The notes beneath the pieces are model-generated. The model made no database searches, was not told the origin of the DNA, and was given only the letters and a program-made list of their open reading frames with translations. The position numbers were made by a program, and so were the translations under genes. Positions 4,713-32,000 of a stretch of 32,000 nucleotides of DNA are shown piece by piece (position 1 is the first letter of the stretch; every line of letters begins with the position of its first letter). Origin of the DNA: Gemmata obscuriglobus (GTDB lineage: Bacteria; Planctomycetota; Planctomycetia; Gemmatales; Gemmataceae); NCBI RefSeq assembly GCF_008065095.1, contig NZ_CP042911.1:3600001-3632000 (forward strand), in the 5' to 3' direction.

Positions 4713-6173
4713 GTGCCTGACCGTGCCGCACTGCTGATCGCCGTCGAAACGTTCTTTGAGGCCGGGCCGCTGGTCCAGTACGCCGCGGCCGACTGCGCCG
4801 AACTGCACCGCGCGCTCCCGGCCGCCGGGTACGCGCCGGAGCGGTGTACGCTCTTGGCCGCGCACCGGACCACCAAGGCCGTGATCGAGGCCACCTTGAA
4901 GCGTTTGCCGAAGGTCGCCGGCGACGCCGAGTCGCTGTTCGTGCTGGTGGTGTCACGCGGGTTTAACGTGAAGGGGCGCGGGTACATCGCCTGCGCCGAC
5001 ACCATCGCCCCCGACCCGCTCGAAACCTCCATTCCCGTGGCGGAGTTCCTGACCGCGGTGAGCAAGGTGAAGGCCAAAGAGGTGACGGTGTGCTTCGACA
5101 TCGACCCGCTTCAGTGGAGTGAAAACAAGTTACTTCATCCCGGATTGGACGACGCGGAGCTGGCCGCGCTGTTTGAGAAGTCTCCCAAGTGCGTCGGACT
5201 GACGGCGTGCGCCGAGGGCGAGCGCTCGTTCGAATCGGCCCAACTGCGGCACGGCATCTGGCGGCATCACCTGATCGAGGCGCTCACGGGGAAGACGCGA
5301 ACCGGGGTCGGCAAGGACGGGACGCTCACGGCCGCGGCGCTGCACGAGTTTCTGGCCGATGCCGTCCCCCGGACCCTGCGCCGGACCTACGAAACGCAGC
5401 AAGAGCAAAACCCGACGCTGTACGGCGAGGCCAACGCCTCGGTGACCGTGGCCGAACTGGAAAAGGTGCTCGGACCGGGCGGGGACCTGCTCGACCCGGC
5501 ACGCATGAAGCGGGTGGTGTTCCGCTCGGAGAGCCTGAGCGAGGTGAAGAACCTCGACGGCTACCGGAAGGGGCAGCCCGTTCCCGACCGCGCGAACGAG
5601 TGGGCCCGGAAGTACGTGAACCGCGTCGCGGCGCCCGACATCAAGCTCGACCTCGACAACACGTTCGAAATGGTCCGCGAGATGTTCGGCTACAAGCGGA
5701 AGGACCTGGACGTGTCTGCGGAGCGCGACGGGCTGGGGTACATTCGCACGCCGGACTTCGAGTACACCGTGACCGTGAGCGTGAGCGAAGAGGACCCGTC
5801 GGAGGTGCTGTGGCGGCGGGAGGTGAGCCGGCTCTCGGGGCCGGAGTTCGTCCGCAGCGAGGGGTTCCGTAACGTGTTCGGGACGATGTTCGACCGGCTG
5901 GTATTCGAGTTCGCCAGTGCGGTCGATGTGGCGGACTTCGTGGACCGGATCGAAGACGCGCCGCCGGAAGGCGTGAAGGTGACGGTCGCGAGCGACTCCG
6001 GCGCCGCGGTGATCGCGCTGGCCGGCTTCGGGGGCAAGATCAGCGTGAACCGCGACGCGGTGGTGATCCAGGGGCAGACGGGGAACCCGTCGAGCCTGCT
6101 GGAGCAGTTCCTGGTGTTCCTGCGAAAGTTCGGCGCGCTGGGGGAGCCGAAGGCGCTCACGAGCGGCGGGTGA
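4713..6173 (+). CDS. caspase-fold (peptidase C14-like) domain protein, apparently without the catalytic His/Cys, plus an uncharacterised C-terminal domain
   Basis: GTG start at 4713 preceded by GAAGGA (4701-4706). The N-terminal 230 aa follow the bacterial caspase-domain layout: ALLIAV...Y..A..DC..L...L...G, then LFVLVVSRGF where FSGHG is expected, VTVCFDID where LDxC is expected, then LTACAEGERSFE...HGIWRHHLIEALTG...DGTLTAAALHEFL. Confidence 0.6.
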   Translation: MPDRAALLIAVETFFEAGPLVQYAAADCAELHRALPAAGYAPERCTLLAAHRTTKAVIEATLKRLPKVAGDAESLFVLVVSRGFNVKGRGYIACADTIAPDPLETSIPVAEFLTAVSKVKAKEVTVCFDIDPLQWSENKLLHPGLDDAELAALFEKSPKCVGLTACAEGERSFESAQLRHGIWRHHLIEALTGKTRTGVGKDGTLTAAALHEFLADAVPRTLRRTYETQQEQNPTLYGEANASVTVAELEKVLGPGGDLLDPARMKRVVFRSESLSEVKNLDGYRKGQPVPDRANEWARKYVNRVAAPDIKLDLDNTFEMVREMFGYKRKDLDVSAERDGLGYIRTPDFEYTVTVSVSEEDPSEVLWRREVSRLSGPEFVRSEGFRNVFGTMFDRLVFEFASAVDVADFVDRIEDAPPEGVKVTVASDSGAAVIALAGFGGKISVNRDAVVIQGQTGNPSSLLEQFLVFLRKFGALGEPKALTSGG

Positions 6174-22043: not shown

Positions 22044-22117
<74 letters not shown>

Positions 22118-22124
22118 CTGACAT

Positions 22125-22156
22125 AACCCCGTGCGACGCACGGGGTTGTGTCTTTT
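22125..22156 (+). terminator. rho-independent terminator after tRNA-Arg
   Basis: AACCCCGTG, CGACG loop, CACGGGGTT, followed by GTGTCTTTT. Confidence 0.8.
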
Positions 22157-22216
22157 ACAGACCGTGCCCGATAACGGCCGGTGGTAACGCGGTGGCAACG
22201 ACGGACCGAAGCGGTT

Positions 22217-23302
22217 TCAGGGCTTAACTGGCGGGTTTAGAAAGCCTTCCATCACGGCCGCCGCCCGCTGCTGGTCGCCCGGCATGACGTGGGCGTAGTG
22301 CTTCAGGGTGGTCATCACGTCCGCGTGCCCGAGTCGCTCGCTCACCACCTTCAGCGGCACGTGTGCCCGGAGCAGGAGCGTCGCCATCGTGTGTCGCATG
22401 GTGTAGGGTGTAACCCATTCGAGGTCGGCTTTTTTCCGGATCGGGCCGAAGGGGCTCCGCAGGAAGTTCGACTGCCACCACGCCCCGCCCCGGCTGTCCG
22501 GCATCACCAGTTTCCCGGTCCACAGGGGCGGCCGTGCGGCCAGCATGGCGGCGACGGTGGACGGGGCCAGCTCGATCGTCCGCACCTTCCCCGTCTTCGT
22601 GTCCTTCCGCTCGTTGGTCACCCCGTCCTGTGCCCCGCTCACTTTGATCTCGCTCTTGTCGGGGTGGAAGTCGTCCCAGCAGAGGGCGAACATTTCCGCC
22701 GGCCGCAATCCGGCGTCGAGCCAAAGGCGGAAGGCGTAGCCGAGTTGGTGGAGCGATTCGGCGGCGGTCAGGAACGCCACGCACTGGTCCGGTAGCATGG
22801 CCCGCTTCTCGTCACGCTTCGGGTTGGGGAGCTTCAACTCTGCCATCGGGTTCACCGGGATGCGGCTGAACGCCACAGCGGACCCGAGGGCGTTCCGCAG
22901 TACGGCCCCCGCTTTCTGGCGTTCACTGTCGCTCTGCCCGTCGGTCGCCATCTGGGCGAGCATCAGCACGATCTTCTCGCGGGTGAGGTCGCGGAGCCGG
23001 GTCGAGCCGATCCGCGGTTTGAGGTGCGTGTCCACCCGCCACTTGTCGTGGCTGTAGGTCTTGTTCGAGATGTCCGGCTTCCGCATCTCCATCCAGGCGT
23101 CCAGCCACTCTCCGATAGTCCCGGCCGCCGCGGGCTGGTCCTGCCCCTTCAGCCAGTCCTGAGCGTCCTTTCGCGTGTCGAACGTTTTTGACGACCGCAA
23201 CAGTTCGTTGCCGACCTGCTTTGCCTTGCGGGCGAGGTACTTGCCGTTCGGCTTCTTCGTGATCCCGCCCTCTCCATTCCCCCGCTTCTGGCCTTTGGGC
23301 AT
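22217..23302 (-). CDS. int: tyrosine-type site-specific integrase
   Basis: ORF 22217..23389 trimmed to MPKGQKRG at 23302, with AGGAG 6 nt upstream. The catalytic region is LWLDAGLRPAE...TPYTMRHTMATLLL...LGHADVMTTLKHYAHV (R, HxxR, H and Y positions). The upstream in-frame extension runs through palindrome copy 1 and has poorer third-position GC. Confidence 0.9.
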   Translation of the reverse strand: MPKGQKRGNGEGGITKKPNGKYLARKAKQVGNELLRSSKTFDTRKDAQDWLKGQDQPAAAGTIGEWLDAWMEMRKPDISNKTYSHDKWRVDTHLKPRIGSTRLRDLTREKIVLMLAQMATDGQSDSERQKAGAVLRNALGSAVAFSRIPVNPMAELKLPNPKRDEKRAMLPDQCVAFLTAAESLHQLGYAFRLWLDAGLRPAEMFALCWDDFHPDKSEIKVSGAQDGVTNERKDTKTGKVRTIELAPSTVAAMLAARPPLWTGKLVMPDSRGGAWWQSNFLRSPFGPIRKKADLEWVTPYTMRHTMATLLLRAHVPLKVVSERLGHADVMTTLKHYAHVMPGDQQRAAAVMEGFLNPPVKP

Positions 23303-23314
23303 GTCGGGCTCCTG

Positions 23315-23338
23315 CGTGGTGGTCGCGCGACCACCACG
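23315..23338. repeat. element palindrome copy 1 (24-bp perfect palindrome CGTGGTGGTCGCGCGACCACCACG)
   Basis: Read directly from the sequence. On the minus strand it is followed by GCAGGAGCCCGAC and then the integrase ATG. Confidence 0.95.
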
Positions 23339-23402
23339 GTCAAAAAGAAACGCCGGTGCGATCTTGCACGGCGTCTTTAGAATGCGCACAATTGTCCACT
23401 AT

Positions 23403-23621
23403 TCAAGCTTGCTGATCCGGTTCGCGGACGCGAAACTCTTCGGTGCTCACACCCAACGCTGTTGCGAGTTGAACGATGGCAGACCACTTCGGTTCGTTGC
23501 GCCCCTGCTCCCAGTTCTCGATGGACCGGAGGGTGAGGTTCGCCAGTGAAGCAAGTTCCGTTTGCGACAAATTCCTCGCTTCTCTTAATTCCCGAAGTCG
23601 TTTTGCGAATTGATCTTGCAC
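23403..23621 (-). CDS. XRE-family HTH transcriptional regulator (candidate immunity repressor)
   Basis: ORF 23403..23690 trimmed to the GTG at 23621, with GGGGGAG 5 nt upstream. The HTH_3 pattern is FAKRLRELREARNLSQTELASLANLTLRSIENWEQGRNEPKWSAIVQLATALGVS. It is divergent from the rightward gene set. Confidence 0.85.
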   Translation of the reverse strand: MQDQFAKRLRELREARNLSQTELASLANLTLRSIENWEQGRNEPKWSAIVQLATALGVSTEEFRVREPDQQA

Positions 23622-23625
23622 GAAA

Positions 23626-23745
23626 ACTCCCCCAAAATGGGGATAATGGGCTTGTACTCCCCACATGTGGGGAGTATTCTTCCTACACACAGTGAACGTG
23701 CCATGTGTAGTGCTTCGTGCGTCACACTACCCGATTTTGGGGAGT
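23626..23745. promoter_or_regulatory. three related 20-bp dyad operators (7-6-7 architecture, consensus ACTCCCC-N6-GGGGAGT)
   Basis: O-a is 23626-23645 (ACTCCCC CAAAAT GGGGATA). O-b is 23656-23675 (ACTCCCC ACATGT GGGGAGT), the core of the perfect 22-bp palindrome TACTCCCCACATGTGGGGAGTA at 23655-23676. O-c is 23726-23745 (ACTACCC GATTTT GGGGAGT). Centre-to-centre distances are 30 and 70 bp. Confidence 0.65.
23652..23680 (+). promoter_or_regulatory. candidate rightward early promoter overlapped by operator O-b
   Basis: TTGTAC (23652-23657), 17-nt spacer, TATTCT (23675-23680). The spacer is almost entirely the O-b palindrome. Confidence 0.5.
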
Positions 23746-23840
23746 TACAAAACTCGACGCGTGTTCACTGAGTGCCGAAAGGGTCTCGCGTTTTTCAACG
23801 TGCCGGTCAGTGAAGCCAGATCGCCCAAATGAGTCGGAAC

Positions 23841-23856
23841 GTGGTCGCGCGACCAC
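23841..23856. repeat. element palindrome copy 2 (GTGGTCGCGCGACCAC)
   Basis: Perfect 16-mer. It lies 16 nt upstream of GTG 23873, with an AGGAG SD in between. Confidence 0.95.
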
Positions 23857-23872
23857 TTGGTAGGAGCCAACT

Positions 23873-24112
23873 GTGTCGAAGTTCACGCCCACCGCAGCCG
23901 ACGTGACGGAACTGCGGGACCGGTTGCAAGCGTCCCGCCCTGAACTGTCGCTGTCCCGATCGTGCGTGCGGGGCATTCTCGAAGGCTACATGCTCGAACG
24001 TGCCCTGTTCGGCCGTGCTTTGACGAACCCCGTTACCGGAGCCTCGCAATGTCCGCGACAAATGCCCTCGCTTACGAAGCCGGACTCACCAGCCCCGGCC
24101 CCGACGACGTGA
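23873..24112 (+). CDS. hypothetical small protein, first rightward gene (Cro-like position)
   Basis: GTG start at 23873, with AGGAG 6 nt upstream. Third-position GC is high through about 24040. The stop at 24110-24112 is followed after 1 nt by palindrome copy 3, the same layout as at other gene ends in the element. No family recognised. Confidence 0.5.
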   Translation: MSKFTPTAADVTELRDRLQASRPELSLSRSCVRGILEGYMLERALFGRALTNPVTGASQCPRQMPSLTKPDSPAPAPTT

Positions 24113-24113
24113 C

Positions 24114-24133
24114 CGGTGGTCGCGCGACCACCG
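24114..24133. repeat. element palindrome copy 3 (20-bp perfect palindrome CGGTGGTCGCGCGACCACCG)
   Basis: Starts 1 nt after the TGA at 24110-24112. Confidence 0.95.
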
Positions 24134-24141
24134 TCGCGTTC

Positions 24142-24516
24142 GTGTCGCCCCAGATGCGGAAGGCGGTGTTTGACTGCCGGTACGGTCGCCGGCTCACCGT
24201 GATCGTGCCCCGGTCCGCTTCGGCGGCGTTCGTCCACCTCGACGACCCGGACCGCACGAGCGACTTTCTCGGGTGGCGGGACAACCCGAGCCTGACGCTC
24301 GAAGCCGAAGACCCGGCACTGGTCCGGTTCTGTCGGCTCTGCGTCGAGGGGAGCATCAGCCCCAACGACCTCAGCTACTACTTCGAGCACCGCTGCCCGG
24401 TGGTGTCGGAGAGCGGGTGGCGGCGGACGCTCCTGCACGAGTGGTGCTCGAACGCCCGGCCGGTGGACCCGGTTTCCGCCCTCGCGGTCGAGTTGAACGC
24501 CACGGGAACGATGTGA
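24142..24516 (+). CDS. hypothetical protein
   Basis: This is the 3' part of ORF 23962..24516, and the start is uncertain. GTG 24142 and ATG 24154 lie after the palindrome but lack a clear SD. ATG 24049 has GGAG 7 nt upstream, but it would overlap the upstream ORF by 64 nt and place palindrome copy 3 in frame as GGRATT. No family recognised. Confidence 0.45.
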   Translation: MSPQMRKAVFDCRYGRRLTVIVPRSASAAFVHLDDPDRTSDFLGWRDNPSLTLEAEDPALVRFCRLCVEGSISPNDLSYYFEHRCPVVSESGWRRTLLHEWCSNARPVDPVSALAVELNATGTM

Positions 24517-24608
24517 GGCCATCAGGGCGGTTAGCCGGTGTAACTCCGGACCGGTCAGCCGCGGTTTCACCGCTCTGGCACCGTAGCGGGATGGGAACGG
24601 TGCGACTT

Positions 24609-24675
24609 GGTTCCTGGCTTGGTGCCGTGCGGCGGTGAGCGACGCCGCACCCCCGTTCGATTCGGGGCGGAACCT
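24609..24675 (+). other. tRNA-like cloverleaf (non-canonical) in a 263-bp non-coding gap
   Basis: Acceptor GGTTCCT (24609-24615) pairs with CGGAACC (24668-24674) for 6 of 7 bp. There is a canonical T arm CCCCG-TTCGATT-CGGGG (24651-24667) with the G53-C61 equivalent, and a mini D arm GGC-TTGGT-GCC. The central arm has an 8-bp stem and an 8-nt loop (GTGCGGCG-GTGAGCGA-CGCCGCAC), so there is no standard anticodon loop. Confidence 0.3.
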
Positions 24676-24779
24676 CTGGGCGGGCCGGGTAGACCGGCGG
24701 TGATAGGGCTCCACCGCCGGCGACGCGTGACGCATGGGCCACGCGCCCCGGCCCGCCTCCTCGCAAGGAGTTCGACGAC

Positions 24780-24989
24780 ATGCCTACCGTCCCCCAGATC
24801 CCGTTGCCCGCGGGCGACCGCTGGATGCAGACCCGCGAGCTGGCCCAGTTGTTCGGGCTCAACGCCGAGACGATCAACCGCTGGCGGCGGACGGGCAGAC
24901 TCAAGGGCTACCCGGTCGGGAAGATGTTCTGGTACAAGCGGTCCGACGTGAACGTCCTGCTCGAAGCGATGAAGCTGCCCACCATCTGA
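24780..24989 (+). CDS. excisionase/AlpA-like helix-turn-helix DNA-binding protein
   Basis: 69 aa, with AAGGAG 9 nt upstream. The pattern TRELAQLFGLNAETINRWRRTGRLKGYPVGKMFWYKRSDVNVLLE matches the excisionase-family (MerR-like HTH_17) domain. Confidence 0.75.
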   Translation: MPTVPQIPLPAGDRWMQTRELAQLFGLNAETINRWRRTGRLKGYPVGKMFWYKRSDVNVLLEAMKLPTI

Positions 24990-24990
24990 A

Positions 24991-25006
24991 GTGGTCGCGC
25001 GACCAC
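24991..25006. repeat. element palindrome copy 4 (GTGGTCGCGCGACCAC)
   Basis: Starts 1 nt after the TGA of the excisionase-like gene (24987-24989). Confidence 0.95.
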
Positions 25007-25039
25007 CCGCGGGCCTTCCATAAGTAAGTGGCGGCACCA

Positions 25040-26227
25040 ATGGCACGAACCGAAGAGAGCCAGCGGCGGGAGGCCGACCGCAAGGAAGGCTGGAACGCCC
25101 GCCGGTGGTACGAGGGGATCATGGCGAAGCAGAAGACGCACATGGGCGGGGCGGTTACCGAAACCGAACTGCTGATCGCGAACATCGACCGGTCCGTGAC
25201 GCAGGAGGTGCGGTCGGTCCTCGATCAGGCGACCGTGGACCTGTACGCCGAGACCGAGGACGAGTGGTCCGCCACGGCCCCCGTGGACGTGTGGTGGGAC
25301 GGGGCCAAGGCGTGCTACGCCAGCGACGGCGGGCACCGGATCGCGGCGAAGGAGAAGAACGGCCGCAAGAAGATCCTGTGCCGGGTCCACCGGTGCGACG
25401 ACGCCGAATCGGCCCTGACGCTGGCCCGGCTCCACGCCTTCGGCCCGGCGAACCACGCCCACGGCCGGGCCAGGACGCCGGAAGACAAGCGGAAGACGGT
25501 CCGGTCGTGCATCGCACTCCCCGAGTACGCGGGCGAGAGCGACCGCCGCATCGCCGAGATCTGCAAGGTCGGCAAGTGGCTGGTCGGGCAGGTGCGGGCG
25601 GAAATCGCGGGGGCTCCGAAGCCGGCCCCGCGGACGGTCAAGGCCGATTCGCCGCCGAAGCCCGCCCCCACGCCGGCGAGTGGTCGCGCGACCACTGCGG
25701 AAGAACGCGTCATCGAGTCCCTCACGAAACCCGGTGTCGTCGAGAAGCTGGTCGAGCGGCTCGAATCGGAAGACATCGTTGAGTCGCCGGAGGTGGTCGC
25801 GCGGCCACCGGCCAAGGAACACAAGGCCCTGACGGATGCCCGCGGGCGGGTGGTTCCCGAGCCGATGGTGTCGCTGTTCCGGCTCGGGCGGGCGTTTGCG
25901 GCGGACTTGCGGGGCGTGCTGCACGAGGCGGCCGACGGGGTCAAATCGGCCGCAGAAGAGTCGTGGGGCATCGGGCTGGCCCAGATGGTGCCGACGCTCG
26001 AGGCGGACTTGAAGAAGGTCGCACAGGACGCAGCGGCTTCTCTTCCGTGGTGTTGCTGCCCGCACGTCGATCAGGCGACCGGCGAACACCTCGTCGAGGG
26101 CAAGTGCCGGGTGTGCATCAACAACCGGGGCTGGCTGACCCGCCACAACTGGCACCAGCTCGGCGACCCCATCAAACAACTGATCGACGAGCACGCGGAG
26201 CCGGACGCCGAGCGCGAAGACGCCTGA
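25040..26227 (+). CDS. ParB-like N-terminal (ParB/Srx) domain protein with HTH, Pro/Ala-rich linker and Cys-rich C-terminus
   Basis: ATG at 25040, with an in-frame GTG alternative at 25028. The ParB-like core is ASDGGHRIAAKEKNGRKKILCRVH. The HTH-like segment is ESDRRIAEICKVGKWLVGQVRAEI. The C-terminus is WCCCPHVD...GKCRVCINNRGW. It contains palindrome copy 5 (read SGRATT) and decayed copy 6 (read VVARPP) in frame. Confidence 0.65.
   Translation: MARTEESQRREADRKEGWNARRWYEGIMAKQKTHMGGAVTETELLIANIDRSVTQEVRSVLDQATVDLYAETEDEWSATAPVDVWWDGAKACYASDGGHRIAAKEKNGRKKILCRVHRCDDAESALTLARLHAFGPANHAHGRARTPEDKRKTVRSCIALPEYAGESDRRIAEICKVGKWLVGQVRAEIAGAPKPAPRTVKADSPPKPAPTPASGRATTAEERVIESLTKPGVVEKLVERLESEDIVESPEVVARPPAKEHKALTDARGRVVPEPMVSLFRLGRAFAADLRGVLHEAADGVKSAAEESWGIGLAQMVPTLEADLKKVAQDAAASLPWCCCPHVDQATGEHLVEGKCRVCINNRGWLTRHNWHQLGDPIKQLIDEHAEPDAEREDA
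25679..25696. repeat. element palindrome copy 5 (18-bp AGTGGTCGCGCGACCACT), intragenic
   Basis: In frame in the ParB-like CDS, read as S-G-R-A-T-T. Confidence 0.95.
25792..25809. repeat. element palindrome copy 6, decayed (GGTGGTCGCGCGGCCACC, one A to G change at 25804), intragenic
   Basis: In frame in the ParB-like CDS, read as V-V-A-R-P-P. Confidence 0.8.
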
Positions 26228-26273
26228 CCTCGGACGGACCAGTGGCTAATCGGGTCGAGCAGGAGCAGAGCAG

Positions 26274-28109
26274 ATGATTACCCCGCGCCCCTACCAGAAG
26301 CAGAGTGTGGACCGGGTGTTCGGGCGGTTCGACGCGGGCGAGCCGTCCACGCTCGTGATCCTGCCGACCGGCTGCGGCAAGACGGTCGTGTTCGGGCTGG
26401 TGTCGCAGCAGTGGGCGCGAGAGTGCCGGCCGGGACGGGTGCTGGTGCTCGCCCACCGGGACGAGTTGATCCAGCAGGCGGCCGAAGAGCTACAGGGCAT
26501 CACCGGGTCCGCCCCGGCGATCGAACAGGCGGACCGGTACGCGGTCCCAGCGGGCGGGAGCATGGGGGACGCCCCGTCGGTCGTGGTCGGGAGCGTCCAG
26601 ACGCTGTGCCGGGACCGCCGGCTCGCTCGCTGGCCGAAGGACGAGTTCGGGCTGATCGTCACGGACGAGTGCCACCACGCGACCAGCCCGAGCTACCGGA
26701 AGATCTACGACCACTTCGGGGCGGCGAAGCGGCTGGGCGTGACGGCCACGCCGAAGCGGGCCGACGACCTCGCACTCGGGCACGTGTTCGGGTCCGTGGC
26801 GTTCGACATGGGCATCTGCGACGCGGTGGACGAGGGTTGGCTGTGCCCCGTCGAGCAGCGGTACGTGACGGTCAACGGGATGGACCTGTCGGCGGTGAAA
26901 ACGGCCGGCGACGACTTCTCGGACGGGGCGATCGGGGCCGTGCTGTCCGGCGACTCGGTGCTCGATCAGATGGTCGCGGCGACCATCGAATTGTGCGGCG
27001 ACGAGCCGACGCTGATCTTCACCGCCCCGCGGCCCCCGGGCGAGCAGGTGAGTCAGGGCGATCTGTTCGCGGACGCCCTGAACAAGATCAAGCCGGAGCG
27101 GGCCGTGTTCCTATCCGGCGAGACGGACAAGGACGTGCGGCGGCGGGAGATCGAGCTGTTCGAGCGGGGCGAGCGGCAGTTCCTGGTCGGGTGCAGCTTG
27201 TTCACGGAGGGGTTCAATGTTCCCAAGATCAGCCGGGTGGTCATGGCTCGTCCGACGAAATCGAACGCTTACTACACTCAGGCGATCGGCCGCGGCACAC
27301 GGACTCTACGCGGCACTCTGCATCCTGACCTCGCCACGCCGGAAGCCCGACGGGCGGCGATCGCCGCGTCCGCCAAGCCGTCCGTCCTCGTGATCGACTT
27401 CGTGGGGAACAGCGGCCGGCACAAGCTCATCTCGGCGGTGGACATCTTCGCCGGCAACCACCCGCAATCGGTGGTGGACCGGGCCAAGCGGAACGCCGCG
27501 AACGACGCCGCCAAGGGGCTGCACCGGGACGTGAAGCAGGTGCTGGACGAGGCGGCCCGCGAGGAGCGGAAGGAGGCGGCCGAGCGGCGGCGGAAGGAGA
27601 AGAAGGCCCGGGTGAAGGTGAACCGGGTGGACATGCACCAGCAGACCGTGGACCCGTTCGCGGCCAGCGACGCCCCGGGCCAGCGGGACCGGCTCGCCAG
27701 CGGCAGCGGTCGCGCGACCGCCACCCAGATCGAGTGGATCCGGACCCACGGCGGGTACTGCTCCGACACCGTGACGGCGAACGATGCCGGGGCCATCATC
27801 GCGGACATGAAGGACCGCTGGTCCCGCAAGCTGTGCAGCCCGAAGCAGGAGCGGACACTGAAGCGGGCGGGCGTGGCGGACGGCCCGGTCCCGAAGGACC
27901 ACGCCAAGGCCCTGCTCGACTGGCTCGCGGCCCGCAACTGGCGATCGACCGGGCGGCCGACGCGGAAGCAGTTGGGGATCCTGCGGAGCGAGTCGGGCGA
28001 CGGGTTTCAGCTCACGATCGACGGGCAGCGGGTCGGGCAGGTGATGCGGAGCGTGGACGCGGTGCGGGCGGCGTACCGCGGGCTGGCGGCGGAACCGGTG
28101 GTGGCGTAA
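26274..28109 (+). CDS. SF2 DEAD/DEAH-box helicase (type III restriction Res-like) with a C-terminal extension
   Basis: AGGAG upstream. Motif I is LPTGCGKT, motif II is VTDECHH, motif III is GVTATP, and motif VI is YTQAIGRGTR. A charged low-complexity segment (EERKEAAERRRKEKKARVK) is followed by palindrome copy 7 in frame (SGRATAT) before a 130-aa tail. Confidence 0.85.
   Translation: MITPRPYQKQSVDRVFGRFDAGEPSTLVILPTGCGKTVVFGLVSQQWARECRPGRVLVLAHRDELIQQAAEELQGITGSAPAIEQADRYAVPAGGSMGDAPSVVVGSVQTLCRDRRLARWPKDEFGLIVTDECHHATSPSYRKIYDHFGAAKRLGVTATPKRADDLALGHVFGSVAFDMGICDAVDEGWLCPVEQRYVTVNGMDLSAVKTAGDDFSDGAIGAVLSGDSVLDQMVAATIELCGDEPTLIFTAPRPPGEQVSQGDLFADALNKIKPERAVFLSGETDKDVRRREIELFERGERQFLVGCSLFTEGFNVPKISRVVMARPTKSNAYYTQAIGRGTRTLRGTLHPDLATPEARRAAIAASAKPSVLVIDFVGNSGRHKLISAVDIFAGNHPQSVVDRAKRNAANDAAKGLHRDVKQVLDEAAREERKEAAERRRKEKKARVKVNRVDMHQQTVDPFAASDAPGQRDRLASGSGRATATQIEWIRTHGGYCSDTVTANDAGAIIADMKDRWSRKLCSPKQERTLKRAGVADGPVPKDHAKALLDWLAARNWRSTGRPTRKQLGILRSESGDGFQLTIDGQRVGQVMRSVDAVRAAYRGLAAEPVVA
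26971..26985. repeat. possible degenerate copy: 15-bp odd-centred palindrome TGGTCGC-G-GCGACCA, intragenic
   Basis: It uses the same 7-nt half-sites as the family but has one extra central base. It lies in the helicase CDS, read as M-V-A-A-T-I. Confidence 0.5.
27706..27721. repeat. element palindrome copy 7, symmetric variant (GCGGTCGCGCGACCGC), intragenic
   Basis: The core GGTCGCGCGACC is intact. The second and fifteenth positions changed together (T to C and A to G), so the 16-mer is still a perfect palindrome. It is read S-G-R-A-T-A in the helicase CDS. Confidence 0.9.
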
Positions 28110-28129
28110 AAGTGGTCGCGCGACCACTT
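28110..28129. repeat. element palindrome copy 8 (20-bp AAGTGGTCGCGCGACCACTT)
   Basis: The 16-mer starts 2 nt after the helicase TAA (28107-28109) and ends 16 nt before ATG 28144. Confidence 0.95.
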
Positions 28130-28143
28130 AGGGGAGAGCACCA

Positions 28144-28359
28144 ATGAAGACGGCTGAACAGATGATGGCCGAGTTGAACGCCACCAGAGCCGCACTCGGT
28201 TTGGTGCCCGTCACCCGGCCGAACAGTGGCTATTGCCATTCCGGACGCGATGGCGACTGCAACGACGGTGAGTGTCCTCAACTGAGAGACGGCGAACCGG
28301 AGAAGACCGGTCGCCACTGCCCGCTCGATATGCACGACGACGAACGCGGTTACCAGTAG
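28144..28359 (+). CDS. small Cys-rich hypothetical protein
   Basis: 71 aa with a GGGGAGAG SD. It is bracketed by palindrome copies 8 and 9. The Cys/His pattern is YCHSGRDGDCNDGECP...GRHCP. Confidence 0.55.
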   Translation: MKTAEQMMAELNATRAALGLVPVTRPNSGYCHSGRDGDCNDGECPQLRDGEPEKTGRHCPLDMHDDERGYQ

Positions 28360-28360
28360 T

Positions 28361-28378
28361 AGTGGTCGCGCGACCACT
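28361..28378. repeat. element palindrome copy 9 (18-bp AGTGGTCGCGCGACCACT)
   Basis: The 16-mer starts 2 nt after the TAG (28357-28359) and ends 16 nt before ATG 28394. Confidence 0.95.
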
Positions 28379-28393
28379 TCGGGAGGGCTCCGG

Positions 28394-28765
28394 ATGCCGT
28401 GCTTCTGGTGCGACCGATTCGGGGTGCGGCTCACCCGAGACCACGTGAAGCCGCGGTGTGCGGGCGGCGGGGACGAGGACAACATCGTCATGGCGTGCGA
28501 CGGGTGTCAGGCGTCGCGGAACCAGATCCAGCAGTACTACACGAACGCCAAGGTGTTGCGGTTCAAAGTCGCGATCCGGTGGCCGGACGCGGGCCGCCGC
28601 CACAAGGAGCAGATCCGCCGGATGCGGGCGACGCTCCTCAAGCAACTGTCCGGCGTCCTCACTCTGGTGGCGTTCTGGACCCAGCGGGAAACGGACCGCT
28701 GGGGGAGCAGCCCGACCGCCGCACTCGACCTGACCGTTCCGGACCTGCCGAAGCGGAGGGCGTGA
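28394..28765 (+). CDS. HNH endonuclease
   Basis: GGGAGGG SD 6 nt upstream. The HNH core is CFWCDRFGVRLTRDHVKPRCAGGGDEDNIVMACDGCQASRN. Confidence 0.8.
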   Translation: MPCFWCDRFGVRLTRDHVKPRCAGGGDEDNIVMACDGCQASRNQIQQYYTNAKVLRFKVAIRWPDAGRRHKEQIRRMRATLLKQLSGVLTLVAFWTQRETDRWGSSPTAALDLTVPDLPKRRA

Positions 28766-28768
28766 CCG

Positions 28769-29317
28769 ATGGATCGTGAGGCGTTGCTGCGGGTGATTGC
28801 GATGCACCCGCACGAGAACACGCCACGGCTCGAGTACGCCGACTGGCTCATGCAATACGGCTCTTGCGACCGCGACGCCGCAACTTCCGAGTTCATTCGG
28901 ATGTCCTGCTCCGTCGGGTGCCGGCAGAAGCGGATGCCATACGAGGTGTACGGGTGGCTGATCAAGAACTGGCACCGTCTCGTCCCGAAGTCTCTGGCGG
29001 TCGGGGTGCCGGTCGAGAGCGGGCCAACGCCACAACAGGGGTGGCGGATCAACTGGCACAACGGGCGGAAGAAAGAGGTTCTCATCCGTCTGGCTCGCCT
29101 CCCGCCGAAACGTGGTGGTTACCGACCGTTCAAGGTAGTGTTCGACTTCGCCTTCGGGTTCTTGGACCGGTGCGAGACGTGGAGCCCGGTTTCTTTCGGG
29201 CAACTGAAGCAGCCGCTCCTCGCCGACCAGCCGCTCTGCAAGGTCATGTGTCATGGCACGACGAGACATCCCCAACGGGTTCGGTCACTACTCGGCGGTG
29301 CTGGAGCGGATCTGTGA
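28769..29317 (+). CDS. TIGR02996-domain protein (Gemmata-type repeat-companion N-terminal domain)
   Basis: GGAGGG SD 8 nt upstream. The N-terminus (REALLRVIAMHPHENTPRLEYADWLMQYG...SEFIRMSC) matches the TIGR02996 pattern (L..I...P.DD.PRLVYADWLEE.GD..RAEFIR.Q). The 3' end overlaps the next ORF by 65 nt. Confidence 0.65.
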   Translation: MDREALLRVIAMHPHENTPRLEYADWLMQYGSCDRDAATSEFIRMSCSVGCRQKRMPYEVYGWLIKNWHRLVPKSLAVGVPVESGPTPQQGWRINWHNGRKKEVLIRLARLPPKRGGYRPFKVVFDFAFGFLDRCETWSPVSFGQLKQPLLADQPLCKVMCHGTTRHPQRVRSLLGGAGADL

Positions 29318-30260
29318 GTACCGCCCGGCGGGCCGGTGGGTCCAGTTCCAGTGCCTCCTGCCGCACCGCCACAAGAACGGCGACGCCCACTGGTCGGGGC
29401 TCGCGTGGATCGGCGACAAGGGCGAACTGGTCGCCCGGTGTCAGGGGTGCGGGGCCGGGTTCAAGGAGCTTGTGGACGCCGTCGGGCTCCCCCAGACCGA
29501 GTGGTTCCCGGACAAGGGTCGCAGGTACGAGTTCGCCAACAAAGGTGGTCGCGCGACCACCGCAAAACAGGAGCCGGAGCCCGTGTCAGACCCCGTCGCA
29601 ATCTACCAGTACCGGGACGAAGCGGGCGAACTGCTGTTCGAGAAGCTGCGGTACGAGCCGAAGCGGTTCCAGTGCCGCCGGCCGACGCCAGCGGACGTGC
29701 GGCGGCGGGCGGACATCTCGGACGGGGTCGTGTCGTGGGTGTGGGGCGTGAGCGAGGGGATCTACTCCCGGCCGTCGCGGGACGGGGCGTGGGATCTGGT
29801 GCCGGCCCGCCACGACCACCAGATCGCGGTGAAGGTCGATGAGTGCCGGCGGGTGCTGTACCGGCTCCCGGAGCTGCTCGCCGCGAACAAGGAAGCCCCG
29901 GTGTTCCTGGTCGAGGGCGAGAAGGACGTGGAAACGCTCAAGTCGCTGGGGCTCACCGCGGTCTGCACGTGGGCCGGGTCGGGCAGCGTGGACCCGGCGT
30001 GGCTGCTGCCGCTGGTGGACCGGCGGGTGGTGGTGGTGCCGGACAACGACGAGGTCGGGCGGTCGCACGCGATGCGGTGCGTTGGGTGGCTGGTGTGCGG
30101 GGGCGTCCGCTCGGTGCGGGTGCTGTGGCCGGGCGAGTGCGGCTACGACCCGGCCCCGGGCGGCGACATCTCCGACTGGCTGGCCGCTCAGGACCCGGAC
30201 GGCGGCGGGGCGAAGGCGTCGCTGATCGAACTGTGCAAGCGGGCTCACGAGTACAAGTGA
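29253..30260 (+). CDS. DNA primase-like protein (CHC2-type zinc finger + Toprim domain)
   Basis: The Zn finger is FQCLLPHRHKNGDAHW...ARCQGCGAGF. Toprim motifs are VFLVEGEKDVETL and VVVVPDNDEVGRSHA. Palindrome copy 10 lies in frame (KGGRATTA) between the finger and the core. The start is uncertain because of the overlap with the upstream ORF; an alternative GTG is at 29298. Confidence 0.75.
   Translation: MARRDIPNGFGHYSAVLERICEYRPAGRWVQFQCLLPHRHKNGDAHWSGLAWIGDKGELVARCQGCGAGFKELVDAVGLPQTEWFPDKGRRYEFANKGGRATTAKQEPEPVSDPVAIYQYRDEAGELLFEKLRYEPKRFQCRRPTPADVRRRADISDGVVSWVWGVSEGIYSRPSRDGAWDLVPARHDHQIAVKVDECRRVLYRLPELLAANKEAPVFLVEGEKDVETLKSLGLTAVCTWAGSGSVDPAWLLPLVDRRVVVVPDNDEVGRSHAMRCVGWLVCGGVRSVRVLWPGECGYDPAPGGDISDWLAAQDPDGGGAKASLIELCKRAHEYK
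29544..29561. repeat. element palindrome copy 10 (18-bp GGTGGTCGCGCGACCACC), intragenic
   Basis: In frame in the primase-like CDS, read as G-G-R-A-T-T. Confidence 0.95.
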
Positions 30261-30262
30261 AC

Positions 30263-30276
30263 TGGTCGCGCGACCA
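30263..30276. repeat. element palindrome copy 11 (14-bp TGGTCGCGCGACCA)
   Basis: The 16-nt window 30262-30277 starts 1 nt after the primase TGA (30258-30260). The outer pair is mismatched (C/C). Confidence 0.9.
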
Positions 30277-30302
30277 CTTTGGATACGGGGAGAACGCCAC
30301 CG

Positions 30303-32000
30303 ATGACGAGCGACTACGGCGAGTTTTTGCGGTCGAAGGTGCGGGCGGTCGAGCCGGCGGGGTTCGAGAACGGGCGGCTCCCGAAGGGCCTGTTCCCGCA
30401 CCAGCGGGCGATCGTGAAGTGGGCGTGCCGGATGGGCCGCGGGGCGGTCTTCGCCGACACCGGGCTCGGCAAAACGCTGATGCTGCTCGCGTGGGCGGAT
30501 CAGGTGTACCGCCGCACCGATCGGCCGGTGCTGGTGCTGACGCCGCTCGCAGTCGCTGAGCAGACGGCAGAAGAGGCGAAGAGATTTGGGATCGAAGGCG
30601 TTTTCCGAACCGACTCGCCCGCCGGCTACGTCGATTACTCCCGGGTCGTGGTCACGAACTACCAGAAGCTGCACCGGTTCGACCCGTCCGCCTTCGGTGG
30701 CGTTGTTCTGGATGAGAGTTCGATCCTCAAGAGCCACGACGGGGCGTACCGCAAGGCCCTGACGGAGGCGTTCGCGGCCACGCCGTACAAGCTGTGCTGC
30801 ACCGCGACCCCGGCCCCGAACGACCACACCGAGATCGGCACCCACGCCGAGTTCTTGGGCGTGATGAGCCGGACGGAGATGCTCGCCACCTACTTCGTTC
30901 ACGACTCGGGCGACACGTCGGAGTGGCGGCTGAAGGGGCACGCGGTCCGCGACTTCTGGCGGTGGGTCGCGTCGTGGGCGGTGCTGTGCCGGCGGCCGTC
31001 CGACCTGGGGTTCAGTGACGAGGGGTACGAACTGCCCCCGCTCCGCGTCCACGAGGTCGAGATCGAGACCGCCGCCCAGGCGGGCGTACTGTTCGCGACC
31101 GCGGAGACCACGCTCGCCGGCCAGCGGGCGGCCCGGAAGGAGTCGATGGATGGTCGCGCGACCACGTCCGCCCGGATCGCGAACGAGCCCGGCCCGTGCG
31201 TTGTGTGGGCGGAACTGAACGCCGAAGCCGACGCGGTTCAGGAACTGATTCCGGACGCGGTGCAGGTCGCGGGGGCGGACAAGGACGAGGACAAGCTGTC
31301 GCGGCTGAAGGGGTTCGCGGCTGGAACACACCGGGTGCTGGTCACCAAGACCACCGTGGCCGGGTTCGGGCTCAACTGGCAGCACTGCCGCCGCATGGTG
31401 TTCGTGGGGCTGTCGAACAGCTACGAGCAGTTCTATCAGGCGGTTCGGCGGTGCTGGCGGTTCGGCCAGACGGGGCCGGTGGACGTGTACCTGATCGGCA
31501 CGGCCCGCGACGCCGGGGTGTGGGCGAACATCGCCCGCAAGCAGCGGGACCACGAGGCGATGGTCGAGGGGATGCTACAGCACACCCGGGACGTGAACCG
31601 CGAACAACTGGGGGCGACCGTGAAGCAGACCGACGAGTACCGGACGGGCCGGACCGGGGGCAAGACCGACGCGTGGATGATCCACCTCGGGGACTGCGTG
31701 GAAACGCTCCGCGGGTTCGACCCGGAGTGCGTCGATTACAGCCTGTTCTCGCCCCCGTTCGCGTCGCTCTACACGTACAGCAACTCGCCGCGGGACATGG
31801 GCAACTGCGGCACCTACGCCGAGTTCGCGGCCCACTTCGGGTTCCTCGTGGCGGAACTGTACCGCGTGCTGAAGCCGGGGCGGCTGGTGTCCTTCCACTG
31901 CATGAACCTGCCGACCACGAAAGAGCACCACGGGTACATCGGGATCCAGGACTTCCGCGGCGACCTGATCCGGCAGTTCCAAGCCGCGGGGTTCATCTAC
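30303..32000 (+). CDS. SNF2-family helicase fused to an N4/N6 DNA methyltransferase (partial, continues past the window end)
   Basis: Absent from the supplied ORF track because no stop is reached; translated by hand from the ATG at 30303 (GGGGAGA SD). Helicase motifs are FADTGLGKTLMLLAWA, VVLDESSILK, CCTATPAPND, LVTKTTVAGFGLNWQ and FYQAVRRCWRFGQ. From about 31680 the beta-class amino-methyltransferase start is HLGDCVETL...VDYSLFSPPFASLY. Palindrome copy 12 lies in frame (DGRATT) between the two helicase lobes. Confidence 0.8.
   Translation, partial: MTSDYGEFLRSKVRAVEPAGFENGRLPKGLFPHQRAIVKWACRMGRGAVFADTGLGKTLMLLAWADQVYRRTDRPVLVLTPLAVAEQTAEEAKRFGIEGVFRTDSPAGYVDYSRVVVTNYQKLHRFDPSAFGGVVLDESSILKSHDGAYRKALTEAFAATPYKLCCTATPAPNDHTEIGTHAEFLGVMSRTEMLATYFVHDSGDTSEWRLKGHAVRDFWRWVASWAVLCRRPSDLGFSDEGYELPPLRVHEVEIETAAQAGVLFATAETTLAGQRAARKESMDGRATTSARIANEPGPCVVWAELNAEADAVQELIPDAVQVAGADKDEDKLSRLKGFAAGTHRVLVTKTTVAGFGLNWQHCRRMVFVGLSNSYEQFYQAVRRCWRFGQTGPVDVYLIGTARDAGVWANIARKQRDHEAMVEGMLQHTRDVNREQLGATVKQTDEYRTGRTGGKTDAWMIHLGDCVETLRGFDPECVDYSLFSPPFASLYTYSNSPRDMGNCGTYAEFAAHFGFLVAELYRVLKPGRLVSFHCMNLPTTKEHHGYIGIQDFRGDLIRQFQAAGFIY
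31151..31164. repeat. element palindrome copy 12 (14-bp TGGTCGCGCGACCA), intragenic
   Basis: In frame in the SNF2-methyltransferase CDS, read as D-G-R-A-T-T. Confidence 0.9.

Follow-up and report, generated by a model that had tools for sequence, protein, structure and literature searches.

The genome of Gemmata obscuriglobus carries, at a tRNA-Arg gene, a prophage of about 38.6 kb in which a GC-rich palindrome, GGTCGCGCGACC, recurs about once per kb. We analyzed a 32,000-nt stretch of this genome that includes the left boundary of the prophage (contig NZ_CP042911.1, positions 3,600,001 to 3,632,000; hereafter the window, numbered from its first letter), together with related phage sequences. 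First, the palindrome is a lineage trait shared by temperate phages of a Gemmata-associated clade that had not been described previously, and nothing comparable has been described before for this phage group. Second, purifying selection on a symmetric nucleic-acid site is well supported. Finally, regarding the function that we infer for the palindromes, they could be sites on duplex DNA for a dimeric, sequence-specific phage protein, with a ParB/Noc/KorB-like protein as the first candidate, a reading that we put forward tentatively.

A palindrome family confined to a prophage

Eleven exact copies of GGTCGCGCGACC were found in the window, all within 23321-31163 (Table 1), whereas 100 dinucleotide-preserving shuffles of the same sequence yielded 0.02 copies on average and never more than 1. 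Around these cores, the perfect palindromes span 14-24 bp. A first-pass annotation of the sequence had already listed 11 positions and estimated far fewer than one chance occurrence; its coordinates mark where each complete perfect palindrome begins, and all of them match exactly. The one-mismatch copy and the odd-centred relative that it had placed at 25792 and 26971 were both recovered, with cores at 25795-25806 and 26972-26984. The former, GGTCGCGCGGCC, is halfway to the GGCCGCGCGGCC variant of related phages, whereas the latter, GGTCGCGGCGACC (one match versus 0.01 expected), belongs to the family only with uncertainty.

The host side of the window (1-22000) contains no copy at 0 or 1 mismatch, just as had been reported from the earlier scan of the first 22 kb, and its five 2-mismatch matches are at chance level. 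Similarly, no copy was present in 6.5 kb of non-phage DNA beyond the phage homology in a second G. obscuriglobus assembly, which brings the host DNA examined on the flanks of the prophage to 28.5 kb. The palindrome persists through the prophage, whose first 16.7 kb contain 18 exact copies and whose last 7 kb contain five, and it ends where phage homology ends. The family therefore belongs to the integrated element, as originally proposed, and this element begins at 22072.

The boundary was placed by comparison with the complete genome LR593888.1, where an attP-type junction links the integrase to phage tail genes. Identity to the window starts at 22072, inside the tRNA-Arg(ACG) gene (22044-22118), and the phage thus carries the 3' 47 nt of the tRNA. 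Database records of the exact protein encoded by the HNH gene of the window exist for GCA_000171775.1 and for a Logan contig of 38,620 bp (38.6 kb); the latter begins at window position 22090 and matches the window without a difference for 9,911 nt.

Distribution across related phages

With the 16-mer, a scan of IMG/VR returned one contig, L005, on which 15 copies are spread over 14.2 kb. Its GC content is 58%; structural genes are present on it, and its terminase is only 41% identical to that of the prophage. Only singletons were obtained with the GTGGCCGATCGGCCAC and GTGGTCGTGCGACCAC 16-mers. Further palindrome-bearing contigs were reached through homologues of the portal and ParB-like proteins, and 138 copies were identified in 162 kb over 13 independent phage contigs, each with 0-4 one-mismatch copies. 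The core was GGTCGCGCGACC in L060 (a Gemmata metagenome-assembled genome), L151, L154, L156, L183 and L185, GGCCGCGCGGCC in L152 and L153, and GGTCG(TG/CA)CGACC in L182, whereas L157 and L164 had GGCCGATCGGCC as 20-22 bp perfect palindromes. The variant type shifts in concert with the rest of each genome, and the TG/CA variant, which has an asymmetric centre, is present both ways round relative to transcription. The pooled logo, RRSYGGYCG-NN-CGRCCRSYY, is symmetric out to ±10.

No iterated palindrome could be observed in relatives found by major capsid protein (L132-135) or terminase (L136-150), or in the portal-found relatives L155, L162, L163, L165, L169 and L180. Palindrome-free relatives include phages whose terminase is nearer to that of the prophage (53% identity) than the L005 enzyme is. 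Inheritance of the palindrome with the structural genes was rejected on the basis of these capsid-, terminase- and portal-found relatives. An abundant 12-mer of L147 proved to be a tandem pentapeptide-type repeat. When gene content was compared between positive and negative contigs, no family was exclusive to the positives, because the contigs are partial. Among GenBank cultured phages there was no terminase more than 30% identical to those of this group, and the motif was not found in the literature searched.

Placement between genes and in protein linkers

The position of the palindrome relative to genes was analyzed for 90 copies on seven contigs with database gene calls. As many as 36 of them (40%) were intergenic, whereas intergenic DNA makes up only 5.6% of the bases (p = 6e-22). 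At junctions between same-strand genes, the 12-mer begins 2-6 nt past the stop codon in 25 of 32 cases; the distance to the next start codon is then 12-45 nt, with the ribosome-binding site (RBS) 5-7 nt after the palindrome, and most gaps of at least 30 nt are essentially palindrome plus RBS. The other 54 copies (60%) were located within genes, in variable or disordered linkers, and 34 of these were in the frame that reads G-R-A-(T/A)-T (p = 8e-6). For example, both copies in the 395-aa ParB-like protein fall within residues 198-260, which are predicted to be disordered by AlphaFold2. Intergenic arms were longer than coding arms (mean 8.7 vs 7.75) and extended with different complementary bases. 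In the window, intergenic copies have an A-rich 5' flank and a 3' flank of ACTT or ACTTT (given also as ACTT or ACC). Distances between copies ranged from 113 to 2994 bp; in 9 of 10 contigs they were more regular than expected at random (p = 0.001-0.02 in four).

Pairs of palindromes were also found in longer, regulatory-looking intergenic regions: L060 2059/2113 (54 bp apart) and L152 4783/4880 (97 bp apart), the latter bracketing a divergent promoter region. Their spacing suggests cooperative binding.

Several known repeat classes do not fit these patterns. CRISPR arrays consist of direct repeats at regular intervals, set apart by unique spacers of about 30-40 bp, in non-coding DNA, whereas the copies here are 113 to 2994 bp apart and lie both inside and between protein-coding genes. 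Repetitive extragenic palindromic (REP) sequences of the REP/RAYT type are imperfect palindromes found chromosome-wide together with a Y1 transposase; here 60% of the copies are inside genes and the host DNA has none. Nor is the family like a miniature inverted-repeat transposable element. Intrinsic terminators need a GC-rich hairpin followed by a U-tract. The statement that no U-tract follows the copies was essentially right, since ACTT or ACTTT follows the intergenic ones, and a terminator scan flagged one copy, on the antisense strand only, with the total at shuffle level. On all of these points the first-pass annotation stands, and its guess of a Gemmataceae host was right as well. Internal translation starts at the coding copies were tried and rejected, an RBS-like motif lying downstream of 7/32 coding copies vs 3/32 in a mirror control.

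Selection on the sites

Orthologous sites were retained between phages that are only 45-70% identical in protein, with flanks saturated with changes. Such copies are located before the helicase motif QIEWIR, in the SNF2 gene, in the linker of the ParB-like protein and at the terminase-portal junction. L128 and L154 share the 15-16 nt palindrome without any change inside an SNF2 gene that is 73% nucleotide-identical, and likewise at two junctions between genes; a third junction has an exact copy in L154 but a one-mismatch remnant in L128. In an alignment of primases from four phages (54-71% protein identity), GRATT forms an invariant island in a hypervariable, indel-rich linker. Related elements hence carry the motif at orthologous junctions, as the first-pass annotation had expected of a genuine feature of the element. 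The placement in gaps and linkers, together with the conserved orthologous positions across 45-70% identity, provides good support for purifying selection on a symmetric nucleic-acid site.

Where a copy is present in one orthologue and absent from another, no indel separates the two (for example, ELVARPPEYP vs EALAGRPAPLP in the terminase). Therefore, the sites arise by substitution and are selected in place rather than inserted. This bears on a selfish or self-homogenising mini-repeat, which would spread by insertion or gene conversion without benefit to the phage and survive where it is tolerated. Such a repeat would agree with the identity of the copies within each genome, the concerted change of variants between lineages, the coding copies that are not shared (the terminase copies of L128 and L005 are at different positions) and a distribution that resembles tolerance filtering. 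However, the coding copies are not insertions relative to copy-free orthologues, orthologous sites persist despite the saturated flanks, Pfam hits in about 160 kb include no transposase or RAYT-type gene (Y1 included), and the adjoining host chromosome is free of copies. It thus appears very improbable that the family is of this kind.

A candidate DNA-binding protein

Three functional options had been offered by the first-pass annotation: a global DNA-binding regulator of the KorB/OB or stoperator type, a translation- or RNA-level signal such as a start-associated sequence (SAS), and a recombination or modification target. The evidence favours the first, based on the strict symmetry, the occurrence in both orientations, the conserved coding copies and the presence of a ParB-like protein in every replication module that bears the sites. 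A start signal fits the intergenic 40% but fails for the coding copies, which are followed by neither RBS nor start codon. More generally, the absence of an RNA signature, the independence of orientation and the conserved coding copies favour recognition of duplex DNA by a symmetric protein.

According to this model, the binder would be a homodimer and the bound site GTGGTCGCGCGACCAC, with the half-site R-R-S-Y-G-G-Y-C-G and two central base pairs that vary by lineage and are probably not contacted. Sites would be maintained at about one per kb over the whole phage genome. Gaps between genes would be taken up by a site, right after the stop codon and ahead of the next RBS; in long genes, it would be written into disordered linkers, in the frame that gives tolerated residues (G-R-A-T-T). 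The leading candidate for the binder would be the 395-aa protein encoded at 25040-26227. Its most likely effect would be genome-wide control or organisation of phage DNA, possibly through roadblock- or spreading-type silencing of the prophage, or through tethering or partition of replicating genomes, with a mode of action like that of KorB at OB, Noc at its binding sites (NBS) or the L5 repressor at stoperators.

That this protein would bind the palindromes, and with what effect, is suggested by its predicted fold and by its co-occurrence with the sites. The AlphaFold2 model has a mean predicted local distance difference test score (pLDDT) of 74.7, and the top PDB matches in Foldseek are Noc (7ng0/7nfu), ParB (6sdk) and KorB (8qa8/8qa9), with E-values of 6e-6 to 1e-4 over about 150 residues that comprise the N-terminal domain and the helix-turn-helix. 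Direct Pfam and NCBIfam scans of the window protein gave no match; PF02195 is recorded on its homologues P0130 and P0133. ParB-like homologues were present in all five replication-module contigs with palindromes (the window prophage, L060, L182, L183 and L185), and 9 of the 10 closest ones have GRATT or GRAAT in their own linker.

On the other hand, a number of observations weigh against this protein or this mode of action. First, the canonical CTPase motif GERRxRA is replaced by DGGHR (D-G-x-H-R, invariant in seven homologues), which is closer to the ParB-like nuclease, sulfiredoxin or DndB type than to a CTPase clamp. Second, the helix-turn-helix shows no visible co-variation with the T/C difference at ±4 that separates GRATT- from GRAAT-type phages. 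Third, the wider ParB-like family comprises 244 clusters at E < 1e-30, mostly without the linker signature, and the co-occurrence of gene and sites is not phylogenetically independent. HTH_17 proteins co-occur with the sites equally well, and therefore several candidates exist for the binder. Finally, the near-zero degeneracy noted above is stricter than in usual operator sets, and the 20-22 bp palindromes of L157 and L164, which are mostly intergenic and in one case precede TTTTTGT, would also fit a hairpin role.

Two other candidates were considered. The XRE repressor is unlikely to be the binder, since the palindromes next to its gene are of a different sequence and the available part of L060 does not encode it. 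A PAPS-reductase-like gene as partner of the ParB-like protein (IbrA/IbrB or DndB/DndC type) was rejected because it was not found in the other contigs.

Separate, AT-richer palindromes are located at the 5' end of the XRE gene (23628-23675), with ACTCCCCACATGTGGGGAGT at 23656-23675 and CCCCAAAATGGGG at about 23630-23642. They differ from the GC-rich family and may serve as operators of the XRE repressor. L138, a relative that lacks the GC-rich family, has a sequence reminiscent of them, AGGGGACATGTCCCCT, in two copies separated by 24 bp (6112-6145).

A possible hairpin in RNA or single-stranded DNA

The palindromes might instead fold into hairpins, either as RNA or as single-stranded or cruciform DNA, that punctuate polycistronic transcripts by stabilising the upstream 3' end, protecting the downstream 5' end, causing attenuation or serving as processing sites. 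They would be recognised by a trans-acting factor that needs the common sequence, akin to REP sequences, T7 RNase III sites or the extended SAS (ESAS) of Cluster K. The intergenic enrichment (36/90) and the position of the core 2-6 nt past the stop in 25/32 junctions agree with this idea, as do the longer intergenic arms with their different complementary bases and the A-rich 5' and ACTT(T) 3' flanks in the window. Moreover, the L157 and L164 palindromes differ by a symmetric A:T to G:C change at ±10, and their RNA fold reaches -17.7 kcal/mol, one copy being followed by TTTTTGT.

However, 60% of the copies are inside genes and are kept at orthologous positions, where a processing site or terminator would be harmful. 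On the sense strand, no excess of G.U over A.C was observed at ±7 to ±12 (32 vs 35), and complementarity fades past ±10. The flanking positions ±7/8 mix independently of one another in L152 and L154; thus, only 12 bp are palindromic there, with a 4-bp stem of -5.9 kcal/mol. The folding energies were -8.1 for the 16-mer, -17.7 for the L157 22-mer and -5.9 kcal/mol for the bare L152 12-mer. A role in structure only would leave the identical sequence of all copies in a genome unexplained, no match was found in Rfam, and the copies are not intrinsic terminators. A hairpin is therefore a doubtful explanation for the family, although intergenic copies may have a hairpin role.

GCGC depletion and possible enzyme targets

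A different kind of recognition would be by a phage enzyme for which the palindromes are substrates, through nicking or cutting, base modification or recombination between copies. Candidates for cutting are the HNH endonuclease (28394-28765) and the nuclease-type domain of the ParB-like protein; candidates for modification are the SNF2-N6/N4 methyltransferase fusion, a C5 methyltransferase in L005 and Mom in L182 and L185. The near-perfect fidelity of the sites resembles restriction- or homing-type specificity. In addition, the HNH gene is conserved in L183 and L185, and methyltransferase genes occur in several members.

A further pattern concerns the tetranucleotide GCGC, which is purged about five-fold in the prophage (18 observed vs 95 expected in window 22119-32000), whereas the host flank shows no depletion (240 vs 256 in window 1-22000). 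As 11 of the 18 remaining GCGC are palindrome centres, the central GCGC appears to be kept against a general purge. Depletion was seen across several relatives (contigs compared: L154, L183, L185, L152, L177, L182, L147, L149 and L180) and looks like avoidance of a GCGC-specific host restriction system. The L182 and L164 variants, which have no GCGC centre, occur in genomes that also avoid GCGC, and this too can be counted for an enzyme target.

A reverse-oriented gene between two copies points the same way. Any two copies are mutual inverted repeats, so recombination could invert the segment between them. In L128 (14041-14267; same prophage, outside the window), a reverse-oriented 59-aa gene is tightly bracketed by two palindromes, an arrangement that cassette inversion or insertion between two copies would fit.

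Against these points, no methyltransferase or nuclease common to all contigs was seen. GCGC depletion also occurs in the palindrome-free L147, L149 and L180, and it is thus probably an independent signature of restriction avoidance. The GGCCGCGCGGCC core has no adenine, which rules out N6-adenine methylation within it. To our knowledge, there is no precedent for an enzyme that recognises a 12-16 bp palindrome and acts at about 40 sites per genome. Taken together, an enzyme target is an unlikely basis for the family. A specific form of it, in which some 40 GCGC are kept at palindrome centres as working sites where the ParB-like protein, the HNH endonuclease or a methyltransferase nicks, modifies or clamps the DNA at kilobase intervals, and in which the need for such sites is so strong that protein linkers encode them in a fixed frame, seems decidedly unlikely.

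Gene content of the prophage

The coordinates of the palindromes and of the principal prophage features are listed in Table 1. Past the tRNA, the gene order is integrase (-), XRE (-), HTH_17, the 395-aa protein, a DEAD/ResIII helicase, HNH, a protein with a TIGR02996 domain, primase and the SNF2-methyltransferase fusion. Beyond the window, the contig continues with a DnaN clamp, the gene resembling phosphoadenosine phosphosulfate (PAPS) reductase, a sigma factor of the extracytoplasmic function type and the small and large terminase subunits, followed by a 1,365-aa Mu-type portal fusion.

Table 1. Palindrome copies and associated prophage features in the window
Feature	Position	Core start	Strand or size	Remarks
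att core	22072-22118		+	3' 47 nt of tRNA-Arg(ACG); left prophage boundary; identity with LR593888.1 begins at 22072
Tyrosine integrase	22217-23302		-, 361 aa	Pfam Phage_integrase E = 2e-16
Palindrome copy 1	23315-23338	23321	24 bp	Longest span, CGTGGTGGTCGCGCGACCACCACG; intergenic, between XRE stop and integrase start; on the minus strand then AGGAG, 7 nt, ATG
XRE/Cro-CI helix-turn-helix repressor candidate	23403-23690		-	Pfam HTH_31 E = 6e-16; NCBIfam RstR-like
Palindrome copy 2	23841-23856	23843		Intergenic; 5 nt before RBS AGGAG and GTG at 23873
Palindrome copy 3	24114-24133	24118	20 bp	Within 155-aa gene (24049-24516); reads G-G-R-A-T-T
HTH_17 (excisionase/MerR-like) small DNA-binding protein	24780-24989		+	Pfam HTH_17; homologues in L060, L182, L183, L185
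Palindrome copy 4	24991-25006	24993		Intergenic; core begins 3 nt past HTH_17 stop
ParB/Noc/KorB-like protein	25040-26227		+, 395 aa	Predicted fold: N-terminal domain and helix-turn-helix, disordered linker, Cys-rich C-terminal domain
Palindrome copy 5	25679-25696	25682		Disordered linker of ParB-like protein; reads S-G-R-A-T-T
One-mismatch copy GGTCGCGCGGCC	25795-25806			Same linker as copy 5; reads V-V-A-R-P-P
Odd-centred relative GGTCGCGGCGACC	26972-26984			Inside helicase gene; membership of family uncertain
Palindrome copy 6	27706-27721	27708		Helicase C-terminal linker, just ahead of conserved QIEWIR; orthologous copy in three related phages
Palindrome copy 7	28110-28129	28114	20 bp	AAGTGGTCGCGCGACCACTT; intergenic, abuts helicase stop; 5 nt on, GGGGAG and ATG
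Palindrome copy 8	28361-28378	28364		Intergenic; straight after stop of 71-aa gene, ahead of RBS and ATG of HNH gene
HNH endonuclease	28394-28765		+, 123 aa	Weak Pfam HNH_5/HNH; 57-65% identical homologues in L183, L185
Palindrome copy 9	29544-29561	29547		Primase linker; reads G-G-R-A-T-T; invariant island across four phages
Palindrome copy 10	30263-30276	30264		Intergenic; core 3 nt past primase stop, upstream of GGGGAG and ATG at 30303
Palindrome copy 11	31151-31164	31152		In SNF2 helicase-methyltransferase fusion; reads D-G-R-A-T-T; orthologous position kept in L154, L185

The TIGR02996 'repeat-companion' domain (protein at 28769-29317, E = 8e-18) is otherwise typical of Gemmata chromosomes, and a related motif is present at the C-terminus of the portal fusion P0072. 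The 752-aa protein that starts at 30303 and extends beyond 32000 (L128 8214-10472) is an SNF2-family helicase fused to an N6/N4 DNA methyltransferase. The Mu-type portals (L005 5550-9866, L152 136-4458 and L128 from 16326) bear C-terminal extensions of 800-1,000 residues, in which domains are joined by low-complexity linkers and 4-7 palindromes occur in each; portal homologues fuse other domains there, such as 2'-5' RNA ligase-like and ADP-ribosyltransferase-like domains and inteins. In LR593888.1 (L181, 4814743-4835486, compared with window 22072-29339), the integrase-to-primase segment to which the tail genes are linked at the att core is 99.4% identical to the window and indel-rich, and it then breaks into unrelated DNA; the arrangement would be explained either by an attP-type junction accompanied by a second, truncated copy or by an artefact of assembly.

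Comparison with known systems

The closest analogues, in kind, would be the stoperators of Cluster A mycobacteriophages, the KorB OB and Noc NBS sites and the 17-bp repeats of Cluster O. Stoperators, bound by L5 gp71, number in the tens through a temperate phage genome and are concentrated in short gaps near stop and start codons, and related Cluster A phages share a stoperator consensus. They are asymmetric 13-mers, oriented with transcription and bound by a monomeric immunity repressor. The Gemmata prophage likewise has many sites in the short intergenic spaces of a temperate phage with an integrase and an XRE repressor; however, its sites are strict palindromes in both orientations, and the XRE gene has different palindromes next to it.

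A density of about one per kb, many coding copies and a strong frame bias to tolerated peptides are also features of the DNA uptake sequences (DUS) of Neisseria and the uptake signal sequences (USS) of Haemophilus, whose intergenic copies are inverted pairs after genes. These are asymmetric, chromosome-wide and serve DNA uptake, whereas the palindrome is confined to the phage and absent from the host DNA examined.

KorB-OB, Noc-NBS and ParB-parS use palindromes of 13-16 bp, and the KorB and Noc sites are dispersed and also occur inside genes. Their binders are dimeric ParB-family proteins with an N-terminal nucleotide-binding domain and a helix-turn-helix, to which the phage protein is most similar in predicted structure. 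The prophage has both dispersed palindromic sites and, on the same replicon, a protein with a predicted ParB-type N-terminal domain and helix-turn-helix. It differs in its far denser sites (about one per kb), in being a temperate phage replicon and in its protein, which has DGGHR instead of GERRxRA and a different, Cys-rich C-terminal domain.

The 17-bp repeat of Cluster O mycobacteriophages, TGTTCGGNNNCCGAACA, is an invariant inverted repeat with at least 30 copies per genome (Cresawn et al., 2015; PMC4351075). About one-third of the copies are coding, and many occupy short gaps between genes; very few are degenerate, they have no orientation, and their function is unknown according to the authors, who also treat stoperators in their discussion (PMC4351075). 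Both families thus consist of many near-invariant, orientation-free inverted repeats that are intergenic as well as coding. This resemblance is in kind only: the sequences are unrelated, the Cluster O repeat has a 3-bp spacer, and host phylum and phage type differ. No coding-frame bias, orthologous conservation at 45-70% identity, symmetric variants or ParB-like partner has been reported for the Cluster O repeats.

In Cluster K, the SAS is a conserved element just upstream of the RBS and start codon, and the ESAS is an inverted repeat with a subcluster-specific consensus (Pope et al., 2011; PMC3203893). The SAS includes the RBS, has a single orientation and is tied to start codons; in contrast, 54 of the 90 palindromes are within genes, with no start codon following.

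Phages of Planctomycetes are almost uncharacterised, and the palindrome offers a simple signature for recognising this phage clade and assigning uncultured contigs to it. It is also a case of a nucleic-acid signal that constrains protein sequence, as the five residues GRATT are held in linkers of unrelated proteins. The symmetric lineage variants represent a natural co-variation experiment, and the palindromes could help to explain the Cluster O repeats. If the ParB-like protein binds these sites, the system would be a phage counterpart of the dispersed-site control exerted by KorB and Noc.

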